Positions 2-8,502 of a stretch of DNA of 64,000 bases are shown piece after piece. This DNA is from Candidatus Gastranaerophilales bacterium. GTDB taxonomy: Bacteria > Cyanobacteriota > Vampirovibrionia > Gastranaerophilales > Gastranaerophilaceae. A program made the position numbers and the translations under genes. The DNA lies in the NCBI GenBank assembly GCA_944326615.1, contig CALVEO010000005.1, positions 294-64,293 of the forward strand, in the 5' to 3' direction. The notes under the pieces are model-generated. The model worked only from the letters and a program-made list of their open reading frames with translations, did not search any database and was not told where the DNA came from. Within the stretch, counting starts at the first letter, position 1, and each line of letters starts with the position of its first letter.

Positions 2-424
2 TATTTCAGACCATACATTTCGCCATTAAAAATTGCTAATGGAAAAGTAAGTGTATTAGTTTATTTTCAAGATGGAAGTCTGTTTTCATTTGGTCCAAGT
101 TCAATGATATTTTATCCTGACGCAAAAAATTACGAAAAAGAAGTAGATGAAGACGGAAATATAACGGAAAAATCAAAAAAAGACAGAGGTAAAACAAGCT
201 TTACATTCTATTTCAACCCGACAGATAATACAACTAACAACAAATATCATTACGGGAAAGGAATTGAACCTTATAAAGTACGATGGGACGGAACGGAAGA
301 AACGCTTAGAAATGATAACAGTCTTGGATGTAAAGAAAATGTCAGCAACGAAAGGGCCTACTGTACCGCGCTAATTCAAATGAACGGATGGAAAATTCCA
401 AAAGATTATCCGATTAGATTTTAA
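2..424 (+). CDS. C-terminal part of a probable type IV pilin-like protein (5' end outside window)
   Basis: Frame is open from base 2 (YFRPYISPLKIANGKVSVLVYFQDGSLF...) to the stop at 424. The ending CTALIQMNGWKIPKDYP resembles the C-termini of prepilin-type proteins of this lineage. The N-terminal methylation motif is not visible. Confidence 0.55.
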   Translation, partial: YFRPYISPLKIANGKVSVLVYFQDGSLFSFGPSSMIFYPDAKNYEKEVDEDGNITEKSKKDRGKTSFTFYFNPTDNTTNNKYHYGKGIEPYKVRWDGTEETLRNDNSLGCKENVSNERAYCTALIQMNGWKIPKDYPIRF

Positions 425-481: not shown

Positions 482-1048
482 TTAATTACAAGCACAAACC
501 ATTTCCATATCGCTTGCTACAGAAACTACATTTGAAAAATTATAGTTTTCTACAAGATCACTTTGTTCAAAATAAACACAGTTATCAATAACAAGTTCAT
601 CACATTGTTTTAATGTCAATAATGAAAGATTTTTAGCTGTTTTTGAATCTGTTATAAGTCTGTGAACTTTCATATTTTTAGGGAATGATGTAATTTTTGT
701 ACTTTTTACATTAAATACATTTGCTCTGATATCTGTATTTAATTTTTCAATATTGCTTTTTTCGATGCTTAAAGAATCAGTCCAGATATGTTCCGGCAAT
801 TTACCGATTTTTGCACCAGTCATGTTTACGGAATTTGCATCAATAGCTGATTCAATCTTTTTAATTTCAGCGCCTGACATATCGAGAGTATTTGACACCC
901 AGCCGATAGACAATTTGCCGATAACACATTTTGACAAATTCAAGCTGCCTTCGATGTGGCCTAATTCGAGACTTTTAATTTCGCAGCCTGATAAATCTAA
1001 GTCTCCGCCCTGATAATTGTTAATTAATTCCTGATAATCTCTTTTCAT
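482..1048 (-). CDS. Leucine-rich-repeat-like beta-solenoid hypothetical protein
   Basis: ~20-aa repeats LDLSGCEIKSL / LNLSKCVIGKL / LDMSGAEIKKI / VNMTGAKIGKL. Start moved to ATG 1048, which has a GGAGG RBS upstream. Confidence 0.6.
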   Translation of the reverse strand: MKRDYQELINNYQGGDLDLSGCEIKSLELGHIEGSLNLSKCVIGKLSIGWVSNTLDMSGAEIKKIESAIDANSVNMTGAKIGKLPEHIWTDSLSIEKSNIEKLNTDIRANVFNVKSTKITSFPKNMKVHRLITDSKTAKNLSLLTLKQCDELVIDNCVYFEQSDLVENYNFSNVVSVASDMEMVCACN

Positions 1049-1128
1049 AATAAAAACCTCCAAATTTTTATATCTATATAATATACATATAATTTTTTAA
1101 AATTTAATCCTCCGGTTATATGTTTTTT

Positions 1129-1491
1129 TTAAAAATTCAAATACTTTTCAAGATAATTACATGCATAATCAAGCCGTTGTTTGTCATGCAAAAACCACAA
1201 GCCAATAAGACATTCAAAAGCTGTTGCAAGACGATATTCTGCCTGTATCTGACGCCTGCCGACAGGTATCGGGAGATTTCTTGCGCGGCGGACAATGTCT
1301 TTTTCTTCATCAGTCAAAATATTTTCAAGATAATGAAGAAGTTCTGCCTGAAAAGATGCTTTTACATTTGTGGTTGTAATTTTGTGCAGTTTTGTGGAAT
1401 TATTTGTCAGCCGGACGGTTTTTTCACGTATAAAAATTTCCCATACAGCATCACCAATATAGGCATAATTCCTTAAATTCATTTCTTCCAT
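1129..1491 (-). CDS. mrnC: Mini-ribonuclease III
   Basis: AYIGDAVWE signature, ~120 aa, no dsRBD, YRLATAFECLIG motif. Confidence 0.9.
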   Translation of the reverse strand: MEEMNLRNYAYIGDAVWEIFIREKTVRLTNNSTKLHKITTTNVKASFQAELLHYLENILTDEEKDIVRRARNLPIPVGRRQIQAEYRLATAFECLIGLWFLHDKQRLDYACNYLEKYLNF

Positions 1492-1564
1492 AAAAAGAGT
1501 TTACTACAAATATTGTATTTAATAAAAAATTATGAGATAATTTTTTTATAAAAAGAGAGGACTT

Positions 1565-2212
1565 ATGAAACAAAAAGTTTTAACATTAGGGATTTGCATA
1601 ATTTTAACAGGAATATGTGCAAACGCTTCTGATACCATTCCTGCAGAGACCAAAATTTTTGCGGAAAATCAAAATCAAACCTGTGAATGCAATAAGAGTA
1701 CAAAATGCTTAGATTTGATGACTTCTATGTATAACAGGCGGGCTGCATTATATAATGTTTTAAATCTCTCAAACGACCAGCAGAAATGTAAAGATGTTAT
1801 TGACAAAAAACGTTATGAAGAATTAGGCAGGATTTTTGCACAATATGAACAGGAAAAATTTGTCCTCTCAAACATGTGCAAACATAATGCAAGCAAACAG
1901 GCAATAAAAAAACAAGAGCGTGTTGTAAAAGATATTGCAAAATGCATGAAAAAAACAGGCGAAAAATATGATAAAGAATTCAAATCCGTTTTAAATTCCG
2001 AGCAGAGAGGTAAACTTAATACAATAAGAAAAATGGAACGGAAAGAAATCAAATACTGTCTTAAGAAAAAAGCTTTCTATGAACGCGACCCCAAACTCCG
2101 TCCTTTTGGAGAAAAAATGTATTACGGAGAACAGAATAACGTTCTTTGCCCGGTACACAAAAAATGGCATTTATTCGGCTACAAACACAAAATAAAAGAA
2201 ACTACAGAGTAA
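1565..2212 (+). CDS. Secreted helical protein, Spy/CpxP-like
   Basis: Signal peptide; LNLSNDQQ and VLNSEQRGKL resemble LTxxQ motifs; RBS GAGAGG. Confidence 0.5.
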   Translation: MKQKVLTLGICIILTGICANASDTIPAETKIFAENQNQTCECNKSTKCLDLMTSMYNRRAALYNVLNLSNDQQKCKDVIDKKRYEELGRIFAQYEQEKFVLSNMCKHNASKQAIKKQERVVKDIAKCMKKTGEKYDKEFKSVLNSEQRGKLNTIRKMERKEIKYCLKKKAFYERDPKLRPFGEKMYYGEQNNVLCPVHKKWHLFGYKHKIKETTE

Positions 2213-2262
2213 ATAAATTAAACAAATGATGATTTTTATTTAAAAATCATTACAATATTTAT

Positions 2263-2943
2263 ATGAAGAAATTACTTGTCTTAATCTTAATTTCAATTTT
2301 AACAGCACAGAATTGTTATGCCTGGGGCTGGTTCGGGAAAAAAGATTCCGACAAAAAAGAAGTTTCGACAGAAAATATTGAAATCGAAAATCAAGGTAAA
2401 GGTTATGCCGGCACACTGCCGGATGTTACAAAAAATTTCAGGACAAACGAATCAAAAGTAACAAAACCCGTATTTGAAGAATCAAAAAATTTTAATTCAT
2501 CGGATGAAATAAAACCCATCCCTACAGATAACCCTGCATTTGTAAACATAATGCTTAAGCATGATAAGAGATCACCATATTTAAACGATATATATGGTGA
2601 TATTCTCCCGCAGCTTGAAAATATACTTAAATGTATAGATGATAACAAAAACGTACAAATTTTTAATGCAAAAGTATTTTTCTTCAACAAAACAGTAGAA
2701 TATTTACAAACTAAATATGCAGGGAAACCTGAAAGCAATTACCTTTCATTTGCAAAGCTTCTGGAACTTAACACACACACAAAATCCGTTGCGACTTTGC
2801 GCCGCGAAGCTGAAAAATACAGGCCTTATCTTGCCTACACAGGTTCAGGGTATTTGTATAATGAAAATGTAATAAACCAGCAGCTTGAATATCTAAAAAC
2901 AGAAATTCAGGATACTATTGTAATATTAAGAGAAGAAAAGTAA
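2263..2943 (+). CDS. Secreted hypothetical protein
   Basis: 226-aa ORF with a Sec-type signal peptide (MKKLLVLILISILTAQNCYA). Confidence 0.7.
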   Translation: MKKLLVLILISILTAQNCYAWGWFGKKDSDKKEVSTENIEIENQGKGYAGTLPDVTKNFRTNESKVTKPVFEESKNFNSSDEIKPIPTDNPAFVNIMLKHDKRSPYLNDIYGDILPQLENILKCIDDNKNVQIFNAKVFFFNKTVEYLQTKYAGKPESNYLSFAKLLELNTHTKSVATLRREAEKYRPYLAYTGSGYLYNENVINQQLEYLKTEIQDTIVILREEK

Positions 2944-2946
2944 TTA

Positions 2947-3726
2947 TTACTTAATCCCCCATTTTTCCTGCATCCTGTTAAGGCGTCCTTTAGCTTGCAA
3001 ACCTTCTATAACATAATTAACTCTGTTCATAAGTCTGATAGAATTCTCATCTTTTCGAAAAGCAGCAGCATAAGGCTCTTTTGAATATCTTTTTGGCAAA
3101 AGTTTTACTGATTTGTCATTAACCGCAAAACCCAGAAGTATAGTATCATCAGCAACAATTCCCTGCGCTTTACCTGCCTTCAAGGCTCTATAAGCCTGTG
3201 CATAAGTTTTATACCCTATAACTTTAACTTCCGGAACATTTCTTCTAAGATTTCTTTCACTTGTTGAGCCGAAAACAATAATAAGTCTTTCACCTTCAAA
3301 ATCGCTCAAAGATGTAGCCTTGCTGGAACTATTAACAAGAATAGCCTGTCCTGCCATATAATAAGGAGTTGAAAAATTTAAAATTTGTTGTCTTTGATTA
3401 GTAATAGACATAGCAGCAATAAGCATGTCTACATCACCGGAATTAAGTTTCATAATTCTATCAGAAGCTGATACAGGCACAAATTGCACTTTATTTTCAT
3501 TTCCGAGAATATTTCCTGCAATAATTTTTGCAAGATCAATATCATACCCTATAAGGCTGCCGTCTTTGTCTCTAAAGCCAAACGGCGGCGCATCATCACG
3601 CACACCTATAATAATTTTATCACGCTTCATAATCTTGCTTAAATCATCACCTACATCTTTTTTCTTACCGCAGCCGCAGCAAAAAAGACATAATAACAAT
3701 ACTGCTAAAATAACCTTTTTCATCAT
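2947..3726 (-). CDS. Polar amino-acid ABC transporter substrate-binding protein (family 3), probable lipoprotein
   Basis: IIIGVRDDAPPFGF, GYDIDLAKIIA, SITNQRQQILNFSTPYY motifs; N-terminal Cys-rich lipobox-like region. Start taken at MMKK. Confidence 0.9.
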   Translation of the reverse strand: MMKKVILAVLLLCLFCCGCGKKKDVGDDLSKIMKRDKIIIGVRDDAPPFGFRDKDGSLIGYDIDLAKIIAGNILGNENKVQFVPVSASDRIMKLNSGDVDMLIAAMSITNQRQQILNFSTPYYMAGQAILVNSSSKATSLSDFEGERLIIVFGSTSERNLRRNVPEVKVIGYKTYAQAYRALKAGKAQGIVADDTILLGFAVNDKSVKLLPKRYSKEPYAAAFRKDENSIRLMNRVNYVIEGLQAKGRLNRMQEKWGIK

Positions 3727-3767: not shown

Positions 3768-3966
3768 TTTAGAAGATAGGAAGGTAGGTTATTTGGCAGA
3801 TGGAGGACCGGAGGTCAAACGGATTTAGAGGGTAGGAAGATAAGAAGGTAGGAGGGTAGGCTGTTTTATGGGCAAAAGCTTATCTTCCTATCCTCTTAAC
3901 CTCTTAGCTTCTGAATTGTACCCCACCCCTTCCCCTGCCTAATCAGGGAGGGGGAGCGTGCCGCTC
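3768..3966 (+). repeat. Composite intergenic repeat, copy R1 (purine-rich 8/9-mer hairpin + CCCxCCC palindrome + mini-hairpin)
   Basis: GAAGATAG/GAAGGTAG units followed by the complementary AGCTTATCTTCCTATCCTC...CTCTTAGCTTCT arm; similar to 8793-8910(-), 24485-24700 and 45503-45642(-). Confidence 0.85.
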
Positions 3967-3996
3967 CACCCTCCAAATGGGTTTTGGCTTAGAGCA

Positions 3997-6147
3997 TTAC
4001 TTGATTTTTGCTTCTAATTTGTCAAGACGGGATTTTAGTTCTTGATTTTCTTTTTCTAACGCGGTTACGCGGGAATCAAGTTCTTTTATTGCATTTATCA
4101 CTGCATAGAACATGTCTTCCATACGAATGGTCAAGAAGCCGTCGACCCCTTTTTTAACCGCATCTGGAAAAACTTTTTGCAAGTCCTGTGCAATTACGCC
4201 GACATGAGGGGTTTTCTTTTCGTCTTTTTTGAAGGTATAATTAAATACTTTCAACTGACGAATCTTATCTAAACCGGATGTGTTTGCTGTGCCTACATAT
4301 TTTAAGCGGCGATCGGAAAACACTGAATCACTATGTGAAAATTCCCCGTCAGAATTATAATAATTATACATTTCAGAACTTTTAGACAAATTAGCAACCT
4401 TCAAATTCCCGTTTTCATCTGTTGCAAATGCTGATATATCGTCATTATTACCGGCAAAATTCTTTCCTCCAGATCCGCCGGCATATGCCATTTTTGCAAC
4501 TATAATACCTTTTACAATTAAATTTCCATTGATTACAACTCCTGTATCAGTTACTCCGAGATGACTATCAACCTTTAACTGATTCATAGAGTTATGTACC
4601 TCTAATACTGCAGAACCAGCGTTAAAATTTGAACGACTGCCTATAAAAACGCGTTCGTCATTGTCACTTTCCGCATCAGAACCAAAATTTGGACCGGAAT
4701 TTGCACCGATACATATTTTATTACTGCCGGTCACACGGGAACAGGCAAGGGAACCAATGGCTGTGTTATTACTACCGGCTAACAAGGATTTCAAAGAGTT
4801 TGGTCCAAGTGCAACATTTGATGAACCATTATCTAAATTTGTTAATGAATAATAACCAATACCTATATTGGGTGTATCAACTGAAGTAGTATTTATTTTA
4901 TAAAGTGCACGGGTACCTATAGCTATTGATTCATTTGTCGCATCGGCAGTACCCATTGCTTCTGTACCTATAGCAATATTATTGCCTTTAGAAGACAGAT
5001 AACGGTGAGTAACAGATTTTGCTCCGTTACCGATTGCTATTCCGTTTAACCCTTTGGATTGAGCCTCTCTACCTATAGCTATACTATTCTCTCCATACGC
5101 TTTTGCTAAATAAGGGCCGATTGCAAGAGAATAATCGCCGTATGTCTCGGCCTCATCACCTATAGCTATAGAATATTGATTTGAAGAAATTGTTTCGGTG
5201 CCTATAGATATTGAATTTACCGCTTTCGCGTTTGAATCCCGACCTATTGCTATACTTTTACCGCCATTTGATATTGAACTTGTACCGATTGCTATGGAAT
5301 CGCCTATGGTACCACCACTGCCAGCATCATAACCGGATTGGGAAGCGCTGCCTATAGCTATTGAGCGTAAACCTACTGTATAAGCCCCACTAAGTGCTGC
5401 ACCGCCATCCTGCTCGTCTGTTGTCATTGAACTTCCAATAGCGATTGAACCGTTACCATAGGCCGTCGATTGATAACCGATGGCTATAGATTTCGCAAGA
5501 TTAGCTGGGAAACCTGAAACAACATTATTTGAATTTGTGCCGATCGCTATATTATCTGTTCCGGCTGTATTACCCTGCAAGGAATTTGCGCCAATTGCGA
5601 CATTACCGCTGCCGGTATTAGAGTTCAATGCATTGGAACCTATTGCGGTATTTAAGCTGCCATCGGTATTAGTAGCTATTGCATTATGACCGATAGCTAC
5701 ATTATCGTCACCTGCTGTATTCGCTGATAACGCATTAATGCCTACGGTTGTATTACGTTCACTGTTCTCGTTCGGACGGGTATTGCTTAAATATAAATTA
5801 TTTCTTTGGTCAAGACTTAAACGGCCCAAAATTGATGCACCCTGTTTAAATAAAATATGACTGAAAGTGCTGTTGTCTGCTACATTGATGAGTAACTTGG
5901 TATCGGCATCATCGCCGGTTGTGTCGTGCTGCCCGATTAATGCCACCTGCTGTTCGCCAGCGCCAAAATACGCATCTGACCCGTTCGTTGAATAGCGCCA
6001 GGGTGATGAATAATCTGATTTGTTACGCGTTGTCATTACAGGCGCCATGGCCGCCAAAATGATACTCATGATTAACATCACGACCATCATTTCCGCTAAA
6101 GTAAACGCCCCGTAACAGCTTTTTTGCTGCTTCCAAAATTTCCTCAT
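3997..6147 (-). CDS. Prepilin-type N-terminal methylation domain + YadA-like head repeats + Peptidase S74 intramolecular chaperone (adhesin)
   Basis: GA|FTLAEMMVVMLIMSIILAAMAP; many S(I/L)AIG and NxAIG repeats; C-terminal FSDRRLK...HVGVIAQDLQKVFPDAV plus a terminal coiled coil. Confidence 0.85.
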   Translation of the reverse strand: MRKFWKQQKSCYGAFTLAEMMVVMLIMSIILAAMAPVMTTRNKSDYSSPWRYSTNGSDAYFGAGEQQVALIGQHDTTGDDADTKLLINVADNSTFSHILFKQGASILGRLSLDQRNNLYLSNTRPNENSERNTTVGINALSANTAGDDNVAIGHNAIATNTDGSLNTAIGSNALNSNTGSGNVAIGANSLQGNTAGTDNIAIGTNSNNVVSGFPANLAKSIAIGYQSTAYGNGSIAIGSSMTTDEQDGGAALSGAYTVGLRSIAIGSASQSGYDAGSGGTIGDSIAIGTSSISNGGKSIAIGRDSNAKAVNSISIGTETISSNQYSIAIGDEAETYGDYSLAIGPYLAKAYGENSIAIGREAQSKGLNGIAIGNGAKSVTHRYLSSKGNNIAIGTEAMGTADATNESIAIGTRALYKINTTSVDTPNIGIGYYSLTNLDNGSSNVALGPNSLKSLLAGSNNTAIGSLACSRVTGSNKICIGANSGPNFGSDAESDNDERVFIGSRSNFNAGSAVLEVHNSMNQLKVDSHLGVTDTGVVINGNLIVKGIIVAKMAYAGGSGGKNFAGNNDDISAFATDENGNLKVANLSKSSEMYNYYNSDGEFSHSDSVFSDRRLKYVGTANTSGLDKIRQLKVFNYTFKKDEKKTPHVGVIAQDLQKVFPDAVKKGVDGFLTIRMEDMFYAVINAIKELDSRVTALEKENQELKSRLDKLEAKIK

Positions 6148-6459
6148 AAATTACCCTTTCTCATACAGAAAACTAACTGTTATAAAAACAGTATATCTGC
6201 ATTTTTATATTATCTTTCATTCCTTATATTTCCATTATAACCATTTTTTAGAATTTTGCAACATTATTAACATAAGATGATTTTTTTTCTAAATATATAT
6301 TTACATTAAAAAAATGTTTGCTTGCAAATAGCCCGACAGAATAACCGCTTACGGTAATGTTTATATAGCAGAATAAAGTACATAATCTAGTATTAGTTTG
6401 TTTTTTAAAAATATTTTTGGGGTTTTTTCAAAAAAAGCCCATAACACAAGGAGGTAAAA

Positions 6460-8502
6460 ATGACTATTAAAAAACTGACTGTGGCAGCTGCAATTGCCGT
6501 TGGAATAGCAACGTGTTCCTTGAATCAGGCAATGGCGGCTTGTCCCTGCGAAGCTCCGGCCACTCCGGCGCCATGTGCAGAACCATTACCTGTAGTAACA
6601 GGTCCGGCTTGTCCATGTGAGACGGCAAAACCTAATACATGTACAAAATGCAATAAATCATTGCCTGACTGCGACTGCCAGAAACCGGATCCATGCGCAG
6701 ATCCTTGCGATCCATGTGAAACTGAAAAAAAATCAGACTGCGGATGCCCGGATGAAATAAGCTGCGATCAGCCGGCAGAACCTGCATGCGCTGTTTGCCC
6801 GCAAACAGGAAAACCTGACAGAAAAGACATGAAACAGGTTTATGGTTATCCTAACGCTATTTACGGAACCAATAACTACATAGGCCAGCCTGCAAATTCA
6901 ATCTTCTCGACAGATACACCGCTTGCAGGCACACCAAGAGTGCTTTCATCAAATATAAACGGTACAACTGTATCTTCTCAAGGTCAGGTTACAGGCGCTG
7001 CAACCCAAATGCCATGTCTGAACGAAGCTCCGACAAGACATAACGGTATTCCAATTGACAGAAATGACAGACTAATGGACGGCAACAATTGTCCGATTGA
7101 CTTCCAGTCAACTAACTCAATTGATGCTGTAAGAAAATCTTTCGTTCCATACGAAATCCCTAACCAGGTTATGCAGACAACAGGTGCTGCTGCAAACCTC
7201 GGCGGATGTCAGTTTCCGGATGTTCCAAACGGATTCTGGGCTGCATGCGACATTGATAAATTAGCTATAAACGATGTTGTAGTAGGTTATCCTGACGGAT
7301 ACTTCAAACCTAACAGAAATATTTCTCGTGCAGAATTTGCAACAATTCTTGTTAAAGGATTTAATCTTGATAAATGCGATATGCCAAGAGAAGGTCTGTT
7401 TAAAGATGTTCCAAAAAGCAACTGGGCTAATGCCGCAATTGCAAAAGCTGTTGATGAAGACCTGTTAAAGGGTTACCCCGATGGAAATTTCAAACCTAAC
7501 CACCCTGTAACAAGAGTCGAAGCTTTGACAACAATTGCTAAAGGTATGACCTGCGACATTGACCAGTGTAAAGCTGATGAAATCTTAAGCAAATACGCAG
7601 ATGGAAATTCTATTCCTAACTGGGCAAGAATTCCGGTTGCTAAATCACTTGAAAACGGTGCTTTAAAAGATTCACCAAATCCGAATATGATTATGCCTAA
7701 CAAAGAAGCCACACGTGCAGAAGTAGCTTCAATGATGCAGACAGTTCGTGTTGCATTAGGTTATGACACTAACCCGAAAACCGCAAACAACATCTGTCCT
7801 GCTTGCCCTGTAAACAAAAATGCTTTTGTTGAACAGGAAGAAATTGTTAAAATTCCTACATTAAAAGTTAAAATGATTGACCAGTTAACCGCAAAATCAT
7901 CTCACGTAGGACAATACTTCAGAGCAAACACTCTTGAAGATGTAACAATTAACGGTGTAACTTATCCTTGCGGTTCTACCGTAACAGGACAGGTTGTCGA
8001 AGTTATAAGACCTTCCGGATGCGATAAAGGTGCGTTAAAATTGTCTTTCACCGAAATTAAAAACGGCGACTGCAAAACAAAACTGCCTAAACAAATTTTG
8101 CAGGCACAGGTTAACAAATCAAAACAGGTTAACCCTGTTGCAAGATTGGTAGAAATGCCATTTACACTAGCAGGTTCATTAGTTGGTGTAGCAGGCAGAA
8201 CAGTCGGCGGTGTTGTCACAAACCTCGGTAACGCTGTTGAAAACGTTTCTAACGATGCAGGTTATATGTTAGGCCACGTATTCCAGGGACAATTCGGCGC
8301 TGCTGCACGTAACTTAGGCGATGGCTTATGGGAAACAGTTAAAGCTCCTGTTGATGTTACAAGAACGGCTCTATCAGGTACAATGGGCTTATTCCAGACT
8401 ACAGGCGACGAATTTGCTTACCTTGTTGACCCGCGCGGATACAAAATCTCCGCTGTAAATCCAAGAGAACACATTACTATTGCATTCGGCTGCTCTGAAT
8501 AA
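6460..8502 (+). CDS. Secreted S-layer homology (3x SLH) protein with a Cys/Pro-rich N-terminal region
   Basis: Signal peptide; FPDVPNGFWA...GYPDGYFKPNRNISRAEF, FKDVPKSNWA...GYPDGNFKPNHPVTRVE and a third degenerate SLH repeat; RBS GGAGG. Confidence 0.9.
   Translation: MTIKKLTVAAAIAVGIATCSLNQAMAACPCEAPATPAPCAEPLPVVTGPACPCETAKPNTCTKCNKSLPDCDCQKPDPCADPCDPCETEKKSDCGCPDEISCDQPAEPACAVCPQTGKPDRKDMKQVYGYPNAIYGTNNYIGQPANSIFSTDTPLAGTPRVLSSNINGTTVSSQGQVTGAATQMPCLNEAPTRHNGIPIDRNDRLMDGNNCPIDFQSTNSIDAVRKSFVPYEIPNQVMQTTGAAANLGGCQFPDVPNGFWAACDIDKLAINDVVVGYPDGYFKPNRNISRAEFATILVKGFNLDKCDMPREGLFKDVPKSNWANAAIAKAVDEDLLKGYPDGNFKPNHPVTRVEALTTIAKGMTCDIDQCKADEILSKYADGNSIPNWARIPVAKSLENGALKDSPNPNMIMPNKEATRAEVASMMQTVRVALGYDTNPKTANNICPACPVNKNAFVEQEEIVKIPTLKVKMIDQLTAKSSHVGQYFRANTLEDVTINGVTYPCGSTVTGQVVEVIRPSGCDKGALKLSFTEIKNGDCKTKLPKQILQAQVNKSKQVNPVARLVEMPFTLAGSLVGVAGRTVGGVVTNLGNAVENVSNDAGYMLGHVFQGQFGAAARNLGDGLWETVKAPVDVTRTALSGTMGLFQTTGDEFAYLVDPRGYKISAVNPREHITIAFGCSE

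Follow-up and report, generated by a model that had tools for sequence, protein, structure and literature searches.

Within the 64,000-nucleotide stretch of Candidatus Gastranaerophilales DNA analysed here (the window, C5:294-64293), the minus-strand gene at positions 3997-6147 encodes a protein that joins the leader and N-terminal helix of a type IV prepilin to a YadA-like repetitive shaft and a C-terminal chaperone of the S74 class. The reading that we favour, with a rough probability of 0.55, is that this gene belongs to a large, multi-copy, Gastranaerophilales-specific family of homotrimeric surface fibres that are anchored by the alpha1N helix of a type IV pilin. Gastranaerophilales, gut Melainabacteria related to the cyanobacteria, are common but uncultured inhabitants of the human and animal intestine, and to our knowledge nothing is known of how they attach to anything. 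The sequence features on which the description of the fibre gene depends are far beyond chance, and are set out below with residues numbered in the precursor.

3997-6147, minus strand: the fibre gene, an intact open reading frame (ORF) of 716 amino acids, with its ATG at 6147 and its stop codon at 3997-3999
6106..6147, minus strand: class III (prepilin) leader peptide, residues 1-14, MRKFWKQQKSCYGA, basic and with Ala at -1, matched by N_methyl and TIGR02532
6028..6105, minus strand: pilin-type alpha1N helix, residues 15-40, FTLAEMMVVMLIMSIILAAMAPVMTT, with Phe+1, Glu+5 and Pro+22
5758..6027, minus strand: conserved linker and fibre base, residues 41-130, with SSPW, SDAYFG, IGQ, KLLIN and HILFK motifs
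4618..5757, minus strand: YadA-like left-handed beta-roll shaft, residues 131-510, with about 22 NxAIG/SIAIG-type repeats
4318..4617, minus strand: hypervariable distal tip, residues 511-610, a small beta-rich domain immediately before the cleavage site
4000..4317, minus strand: Peptidase_S74 chaperone (PF13884) and C-terminal coiled coil, residues 611-716, with a helix at 676-715
4315-4317 (Ser codon) and 4300-4302 (Lys616 codon), minus strand: predicted scissile bond F610-S611 and its SDxxxK motif

All three modules are recognised by Pfam models at scores above their gathering thresholds, which bears out the three-part fusion that an earlier, sequence-only reading of this DNA had proposed. 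N_methyl (PF07963) matches residues 13-34 at 24.8 bits (cut-off 21.2), YadA_head (PF05658) matches in 5 stretches with 66.1 bits (cut-off 25), and Peptidase_S74 (PF13884) matches residues 611-665 with 60.5 bits (cut-off 22), covering positions 1-58 of 58 in the model; a profile search of the genome places this last match at window positions 4153-4317. NCBIfam models were judged by their own cut-offs, and here TIGR02532 (IV_pilin_GFxxxE) scores 16.6 against a cut-off of 16.3, with weak matches of the ComGC and GspG/H models over the same 25 residues. The coordinates given by the sequence-only reading were right; the strand, which it left unstated, is minus, and the plus strand of 3997-6147 contains no ORF.

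The N-terminal processing site reads MRKFWKQQKSCYGA-FTLAE, the last hyphen marking the cleavage site, and mature position 22 is Pro. Of the 126 full-length family members aligned, 111 have an N-terminus called upstream of Phe15, and in these the segment Phe15-Thr-Leu-Ala-Glu19 is invariant (111/111), so that the class III signal peptide with Phe1 and Glu5 noticed in the sequence-only reading is upheld. Among these 111 relatives, 94 have Ala at position -1 and 17 have Gly, Ala being the only substitution known to be tolerated at this position of a prepilin cleavage site. Pro36 (mature residue 22) is invariant in the family, as residues 15-40 are throughout or nearly so, and where N_methyl seems to be missing from a relative, its gene call begins at a Met inside the MMVVML stretch. 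A profile built from the first ~140 residues matches solved pilins, namely Geobacter PilA-N (E=7e-7), Streptococcus sanguinis PilE1, PilA, MshA, GspG and PilE; the matches are confined to the leader and alpha1N, and end at about profile position 48, or about mature residue 35. The motifs of the fibre base begin some 30 residues after Pro22, and linker and base together align with short forms of the protein from other families of the order.

Conservation along the family, taken as the mean share of sequences carrying each column's commonest residue, is U-shaped, with values of 0.77-0.96 over residues 21-120 and 0.82-0.97 over residues 601-700, and lower values in the shaft. The majority-residue share is 77-91% over residues 41-120 and 67% over residues 121-140, and the least conserved stretch is residues 581-600, with a share of 0.36 and 39% gaps. 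The same pattern is found within the host genome, which carries two further complete paralogs (contigs C21 and C27), three in all, together with four or five paralog fragments at contig ends (C49, C65, C38, C15, C67), a position from which it follows that the family breaks assemblies. Region by region, the identities among the three complete paralogs are as follows.

Residues 15-64, alpha1N and linker: 100%
Residues 65-130, fibre base: 82-92%
Residues 131-510, shaft: 32-41%
Residues 511-610, tip: 1-17%
Residues 611-716, S74 and coiled coil: 47-78%

Homology between the paralogs at the DNA level begins exactly at the Phe15 codon, their leaders and upstream regions being unrelated. An identical mature N-terminus in combination with divergent tips fits an assembly interface joined to variable ligand-binding ends, and the conservation of the N-terminus is the strongest internal argument for such an interface over a plain anchor.

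The shaft consists of [NS]xAIG-type repeats, of which 18 are found by a strict pattern, spaced mostly at 14-17 residues, and about 22 when degenerate copies are included, in keeping with the "about 20" of the earlier count. By phmmer, the YadA head 1p9h is matched at E=1e-7. In an AlphaFold2 monomer model built on a 54-sequence alignment (mean predicted local distance difference test score, pLDDT, 69.9) a regular beta-roll extends over residues ~130-520, with pLDDT of ~87-96 over most of 280-520, and when the model is compared with the PDB by Foldseek, each of the top 11 matches is a trimeric-autotransporter head (BpaC 7o23, YadA 1p9h, BoaA 3s6l, AtaA, EibD and CbpF). Beyond the roll, beta strands or a small beta-rich domain are predicted at residues 515-587, and residues 511-610 are likely the ligand-binding end of the fibre.

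At the C-terminus, S611-D-R-R-L-K616, GVIAQ at residues 650-654 and a terminal helix, predicted at 676-715, are all present, as had been noticed. Ser611, Asp612, Leu615 and Lys616 are invariant in 126/126 full-length members, and the catalytic SDxxxK motif, as defined in PMC10769870, is kept in the short forms of other families as SDKRLK, SDRRLK, SDARMK and SDVRLK. Matches of the S74 part among PDB entries, again by phmmer, are the C-terminus of a phage tail fibre (8jov) and the intramolecular chaperone auto-cleavage (ICA) domain of MYRF (7dc3). By analogy with the behaviour of this domain family (PMC10769870, PMC8326128), the S74 domain would cleave itself in a trimer-dependent manner and so release the chaperone.

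More than 3,289 relatives of the fibre are found in a large protein database. The best 120 are all 636-781 amino acids long and carry PF13884, most also with PF07963 and/or PF05658, and none has a source-given name; the complete genome MEL.A1 (CP017245.1) encodes the same architecture in a copy annotated "hypothetical protein BHV42_08425". When residues 1-135 alone are used as query, 840 proteins are recovered, and because 117 of the best 120 also have S74, the N-terminal module and S74 can be regarded as tightly coupled. A search of sampled genomes gave matches in 24/24 others of the genus, and across the genus 3-26 matches per genome lie at unlinked, non-conserved loci; the same search matched four genomes from two other families of the order, and none of the remaining twelve. 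A class-wide sample of 121 genomes places S74 in 27, including 21/25 genomes of the same family. Seven genomes of that family, all belonging to other genera, supplied twelve S74 ORFs, one of them cut by a contig end, and the leader is present in 9/9 that have a complete N-terminus, while S74 proteins from other families in this sample are either without a leader (one has a Sec-type signal instead) or unreadable.

In the two other families of the order, relatives of the fibre occur as tandem triplets encoding proteins of 365-503 amino acids, with a prepilin leader and S74 and no YadA repeats. Long and short forms can be aligned over their N-terminal regions, with Glu5, Pro22 and Thr25 invariant between them. 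The triplet genes are tightly packed (L105 G031:C10, L106 G037:C22, L107 G032:C4, L108 G038:C3), and in one of the two families a 494-residue leader protein without S74 comes after the triplet. This arrangement of 3 (+1) genes resembles minor-pilin operons, and a heterotrimer is possible in those families.

Components of a type IV pilus or type II secretion machine are encoded in the host genome. A single PilD-type peptidase of the bifunctional kind (C16:30793-31788) matches A24_N_bact (123.8 bits) and Peptidase_A24, and has four cysteines in its N-terminal domain, arranged as two CxxC pairs; one operon on contig C1 (C1:18856-24778) contains a secretin, PilB/GspE and PilC/GspF; and two PilT-like ATPases are also present. 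No match in the genome was found to the Pfam models PilM_2, T2SSK (GspK-type) or T2SSG (GspG-type), and the PilM and GspK models do match most control genomes, while a search for PilY1 gave no match either in this genome or in the control genomes. By these model searches the pilus or secretion machine looks minimal. The operon on C1 starts with a gene for a 239-residue protein whose N-terminal hydrophobic stretch ends in Cys, possibly a lipoprotein.

From the anatomy, conservation, homologies and machinery observed, we infer a mechanism with the following steps. The precursor would insert into the inner membrane as a prepilin does, with its basic leader inside and the remainder in the periplasm, and the single PilD-type peptidase/methyltransferase would cut between Ala14 and Phe15. 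In the periplasm the S74 domain would trimerise and act as the nucleus from which the YadA-like beta-roll folds in the C- to N-terminal direction, whereupon the Ser611-Lys616 dyad would cut off the chaperone and expose the hypervariable tip at about residues 511-610. The mature fibre, residues 15-610, would then be held by three identical alpha1N helices until the secretin/PilB/PilC machine lifts it from the membrane and through the secretin. Its final form would be either a pilus tip, on a shaft of the genome's own pilin-like proteins, or a short stub, in both cases with the conserved end proximal and the variable end distal. The function of such a fibre would be adhesion or receptor binding, each paralog with its own specificity.

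Several observations weigh against this account, and chiefly against its last steps. A globular pilin head, with alpha1C packed on a beta-sheet, was found neither by AlphaFold2 nor by the PDB profile search, and the N-terminal helix is predicted at residues 17-31 only, so that packing of the protein into a filament is hypothetical. Judged by these predictions, the N-terminal part is leader and alpha1N only, and by its structure the protein does not count as a minor pilin. The AlphaFold2 monomer is of low confidence at residues 32-97 and 598-672, and passage of a folded trimeric beta-roll through a secretin has to be assumed. The fibre gene does not lie in a pilus operon, nor do the other family genes of the genome, and clustering of the flanks of 79 related loci revealed no conserved neighbour: no cluster other than the family itself recurs at more than 12 of the loci, those that recur are antisense shadow ORFs or orthologous neighbours, and leader-bearing genes rarely adjoin family loci. 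Because the gene is outside the pilus operon and no neighbour is conserved, display at a pilus tip can be offered only as a deduction, and the missing pilin head and absent operon linkage are the strongest points against it. The prepilin leader may, moreover, be a general export or anchor device in this genome and not a tip signal. The interpretation given in the sequence-only reading is supported in part: leader and alpha1N are there, both processing sites are intact and invariant, and machinery is available in the genome, but the pilin head is absent.

The possibility of a general export device is raised by the number of proteins that bear the leader. About 110 ORFs of the 1.96-Mb genome have a leader with Gly or Ala before an FTLAE-type mature N-terminus, against one PilD and one secretin-PilB-PilC operon, and they comprise ~101 proteins of one class (type C), five or six fibres, three Cys-rich "YTLAE" proteins and two singletons. 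This abundance fits a second explanation, generic cargo, in which the fibre would take a route like that of type II secretion or of a bindosome and be displayed or released alone, with no pilus shaft and no role as tip or initiator, and the YTLAE proteins, at 549-1059 amino acids, are clearly no ordinary pilins. The type C proteins, which make up ~5% of the genome's genes, argue the other way. They are 200-260 amino acids long with an N-terminus that reads FTLAEVLITLGIIGVVAAMTMP after the Ala of the cleavage site, have more than 7,800 database relatives that go by source names such as "type II secretion system protein" or "prepilin-type ... protein", and carry PF20318 in a precomputed table. 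The AlphaFold2 model of a type C protein (pLDDT 89.5) places a 53-residue N-terminal helix (alpha1) on a beta-rich head, in the form of a pilin-like lollipop, although Foldseek found no significant match to this model in the PDB; with ~100 short leader proteins of this class, a shaft would be available. In addition, alpha1N stays on the protein after PilD cleavage, so that soluble release is unlikely without a filament or a membrane. We regard the generic-cargo explanation as an unlikely one on balance.

Somewhat less likely again is a fibre that never leaves the envelope, its prepilin-type N-terminus serving only as a cleaved signal-anchor by which the trimer is tethered to the inner membrane, so that it would act in the periplasm or the cell wall. 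The absence of a pilin head and of a pilus-operon context would be explained at once, as would a machine that looks minimal, with PilM and GspK-type minor pilins escaping detection by Pfam. Yet a plain anchor needs neither an invariant Phe+1, Glu+5 and Pro+22 nor 100% identity over 50 mature residues in paralogs that are otherwise only 30-40% identical. Hypervariable tips, multiple paralogs and, in relatives, poly-G tracts are hallmarks of surface proteins, and the nearest relatives of the fibre are extracellular receptor binders.

Those relatives include viral proteins. Residues ~107-712 can be aligned, at ~27% identity and over 81-83% of the query, with phage tail fibres such as those of Roseobacter phage CRP-7 and Pelagibacter phage HTVC112P, and contigs in IMG/VR give similar matches, which agrees with the likening of the fibre and its chaperone to phage tail fibres in the sequence-only reading. 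YadA-like repeats and S74 thus occur together in phages, and a prophage, tailocin or bacteriocin tail fibre with an N-terminus that happens to resemble a pilin would account for them. No phage or IMG/VR match extends over residues 1-100, however, the gene lies among cellular neighbours, family matches occur at 3-26 unlinked and non-conserved loci per genome, and the N-terminus is coupled to S74 in 117/120 cases; a phage origin for the gene as it stands is accordingly very improbable, and was rejected on its cellular neighbours and on an N-terminus seen in no phage match. Since the viral matches span ~107-712 and never 1-100, the shaft and chaperone can be described as a module of tail-fibre type, to which a base peculiar to the lineage and the alpha1N of a pilin are attached. 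Paralog fragments at contig ends show that the family breaks assemblies, but an assembly chimera or pseudogene has next to no probability for a copy that lies intact inside its contig, with two more complete copies in the genome (three complete paralogs in all), the same architecture in the complete genome MEL.A1 and more than 3,000 relatives, and the chimera that the sequence-only reading had named as a danger is excluded. A trimeric autotransporter was likewise rejected: as had been noticed, there is no YadA anchor at the C-terminus (no match to PF03895 in Pfam even at E<=1), and the NCBIfam models for trimeric autotransporters score 17.7-25.8 bits against cut-offs of 750-3000.

The pilin-anchored fibre that we favour can be set beside several known systems, each of which it resembles in part. 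In a survey of modular pilins (Raynaud et al. 2021, PNAS, PMC8179133), Dataset S1 lists 29 proteins with the string IPR012902-IPR030392, and 7 in total in which a YadA-type module intervenes, 4 as IPR012902-IPR008640-IPR030392 and 3 with two IPR008640; the text takes the S74 module as "peptidase activity". The domain string of the fibre, N_methyl - YadA_head - Peptidase_S74, is the IPR012902-IPR008640-IPR030392 of that dataset, and the protein qualifies as a modular pilin by that definition. The architecture is therefore already catalogued, while its reading as a self-chaperoned trimeric fibre is not on record, and a literature search found no study of any N_methyl-YadA_head-S74 member. Like PilB and PilC of S. 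sanguinis, the fibre has an N-terminal IPR012902 prepilin motif followed by a functional module that is not a pilin. S. sanguinis PilB, however, has a genuine small pilin module onto which a vWA domain is grafted via a short loop, whereas the fibre has alpha1N only.

CofB of the CFA/III pilus of enterotoxigenic Escherichia coli (ETEC) and TcpB of Vibrio cholerae are homotrimeric type IVb minor pilins that sit at the pilus tip and initiate assembly (PMC6048534). It is thus incomplete to say, as the sequence-only reading does, that monomeric minor pilins make up the known tips as heterocomplexes. The likeness of the fibre to these proteins lies in a pilin N-terminus followed by beta-rich domains, and in CofB the trimer at the tip is both adhesive and an initiator of assembly. 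The differences are considerable, because in CofB the alpha/beta-roll pilin domain is complete, the tip is an H-type lectin and there is no S74 or autocleavage, and CofB is the single minor pilin of its own pilus operon, whereas the fibre has no pilin domain and belongs to a scattered, multi-copy family that is not operon-linked. With neither the pilin domain nor the operon of the CofB/TcpB type, and with trimerising domains that are putative, the fibre is not a minor pilin of that type.

By analogy, the closest functional counterpart of the fibre family is the mosaic adhesive trimeric (MAT) family of Bdellovibrio bacteriovorus (Caulton et al. 2024, PMC10769870), whose 21 genes encode trimeric fibres with a conserved N-terminal base of ~130 residues and diverse tips. 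Thirteen MAT members end in S74 with SDxxxK, and autocleavage at the Ser has been shown experimentally for a Bdellovibrio fibre (PMC10769870). The two families have in common a conserved base, a variable tip, an S74 cap, multiple paralogs and a cellular origin. The proposed polarity, anchored at the N-terminus and with the C-terminal tip outward, is also that of MAT fibres. The likeness is one of pattern; MAT fibres are described with "the signal peptide" and a beta-helix shaft, and the Gastranaerophilales fibre has a prepilin leader and a YadA-type beta-roll. Phage tail fibres and tailspikes such as K1F endosialidase and T5 pb1 are similar in their C-terminal chaperone, attached N-terminus and distal C-terminal tip, but the N-terminus of a phage fibre docks on the virion baseplate, and that of the present protein is a prepilin leader and alpha1N found in no phage match. 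Left-handed parallel beta-roll head repeats are shared with the trimeric autotransporter adhesins YadA, BpaC, BoaA, AtaA and CbpF; because the fibre lacks a YadA_anchor barrel and a Sec-type signal, and would be oriented oppositely with respect to the cell, it is not one of them.

A more ambitious extension of the same idea, which we put forward as speculation and think unlikely to hold in full, is that a single gene, through its trimer, supplies the entire tip-initiation complex. Three identical and invariant alpha1N helices, gathered by the S74-chaperoned fibre, would seed a type IV filament of the ~100 pilin-like paralogs, in place of GspHIJK or PilVWX-PilY1; S74 cleavage would act as a folding checkpoint that licenses extrusion through the secretin; and the paralogs would be exchangeable and in part switchable through poly-G tracts, so that each pilus would bear a different receptor-binding tip of phage style. 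The canonical GspHIJK/PilVWX-PilY1 set was not detected in the genome by Pfam.

Poly-G tracts are a feature of the family and not of the gene under study, where none is present and a good start codon lies in frame. A tract of G9-G13 lies 14-82 nt upstream of the cleavage-site codon in 17/35 family genes examined, within or just before the leader-coding region, and carriers include the C15 and C67 copies of the same genome and the copy in MEL.A1. Seven of the 17 tract genes have no in-frame start, and an ATG preceded by a Shine-Dalgarno sequence is found upstream of the tract in another frame. Paralog C27 has an interrupted tract (GGGGAGGGGG) and is also out of frame with its ATG, and an in-frame ATG is present in every one of the remaining tract-free genes (Fisher test as entered, 7/17 against 0/15, p=0.008), and three paralogs of one metagenome-assembled genome have tract lengths of 9, 10 and 13. 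These tracts look like candidates for slipped-strand phase variation in a signal-peptide-coding region, of the same kind as is known from pilC of Neisseria. Across the genome there are 74 G/C homopolymers of at least 8 nt, against 2.6 expected, and most lie less than 1 kb from a prepilin-leader cleavage motif, usually upstream and in some cases inside the leader-coding region (for example C15:35093-35102, C40:2492-2502 and C1:14109-14118). Homopolymer lengths pile up at exactly 10 (64/74 of the G/C runs of at least 8, with A/T runs alike), which suggests an assembly cap or miscalled lengths, so that tract lengths and ON/OFF states may be unreliable. An invertible-promoter switch is unsupported here, as only short, AT-rich and imperfect inverted repeats occur upstream of the fibre gene and the paralogs have no upstream 12-mers in common.

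The fibre family, of which each genome has several copies and metagenomes have thousands, and whose tips vary and may be under the control of poly-G switches, is the largest recognisable adhesin-like gene set of the Gastranaerophilales. It connects modular pilins with trimeric tip initiators of the CofB kind and with self-chaperoned fibres of phage type such as MAT, three subjects that have so far been studied separately, and it corrects the published reading of N_methyl-S74 proteins as peptidase pilins, the evidence pointing to S74 as a self-removing trimerisation chaperone of a fibre. Should it be true that the fibre rides a type IV machine by means of alpha1N alone, a minimal cargo-loading element would be defined.

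The host genome is a draft of 1.96 Mb (34.6% G+C, 98% complete), in which the fibre gene is interior to a contig of 64.8 kb. Two candidate expression signals lie upstream of its start codon.

6234..6261, minus strand: promoter-like site TTGCAA-16 nt-TATAAT, ~90 nt upstream of the start codon, with 10/12 matches in a consensus scan
6154..6160, minus strand: Shine-Dalgarno-like GAAAGGG, 6 nt ahead of the ATG, read directly from the sequence

Promoter-like sites are no more numerous in the region than in shuffles, so the site at 6234..6261 is a candidate only. The neighbours of the fibre gene are cellular, with a solute-binding protein downstream, a divergently transcribed gene for an S-layer-homology (SLH) domain protein upstream, followed by a helix-turn-helix (HTH) regulator, a peptidyl-prolyl isomerase (PPIase) and a GGDEF protein. 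The divergent neighbour (window 6460-8502, plus strand) encodes 680 amino acids with two SLH domains, and fits an envelope of the cyanobacterial kind, in which the outer membrane is tethered to the wall; no link between it and the fibre was found. On the 3' side of the fibre gene, at window ~3770-3990, there is a GC-rich hairpin (GGAGGGTGGAGCG-GCAC-GCTCCCCCTCC), and after it comes a long composite element of purine-rich and pyrimidine-rich sequence, parts of which match dozens of sites on ~50 contigs of the genome.

Repetitive DNA also accompanies many of the type C genes. The 3' part of one type C gene occupies window positions 2-424, and another example is located near C1:64799. Upstream of many type C genes (C2:64704-, C45:3425-, C23:27645-) there are stop-free frames of 200-320 codons that consist of GC-rich intergenic repeat DNA, and before the type C starts there are 1-3 tandem units of ~60 nt that re-encode a degenerate leader and cleavage site (AFTLAEGATHV..FD.IRR); type C genes with such upstream repeats probably have GTG starts. 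The three large leader proteins (C41:369-3674, C15:18616-, C40:2320-) continue for 549-1059 amino acids past a cleavage site at which Gly or Ala is followed by YTLAEIIIVMLVIA, and have a conserved C-terminal region of ~200 amino acids, the largest with dozens of Cys-rich, CxCP-type repeats. A gene for a PilT-like ATPase lies 1.7 kb downstream of the one on C41.

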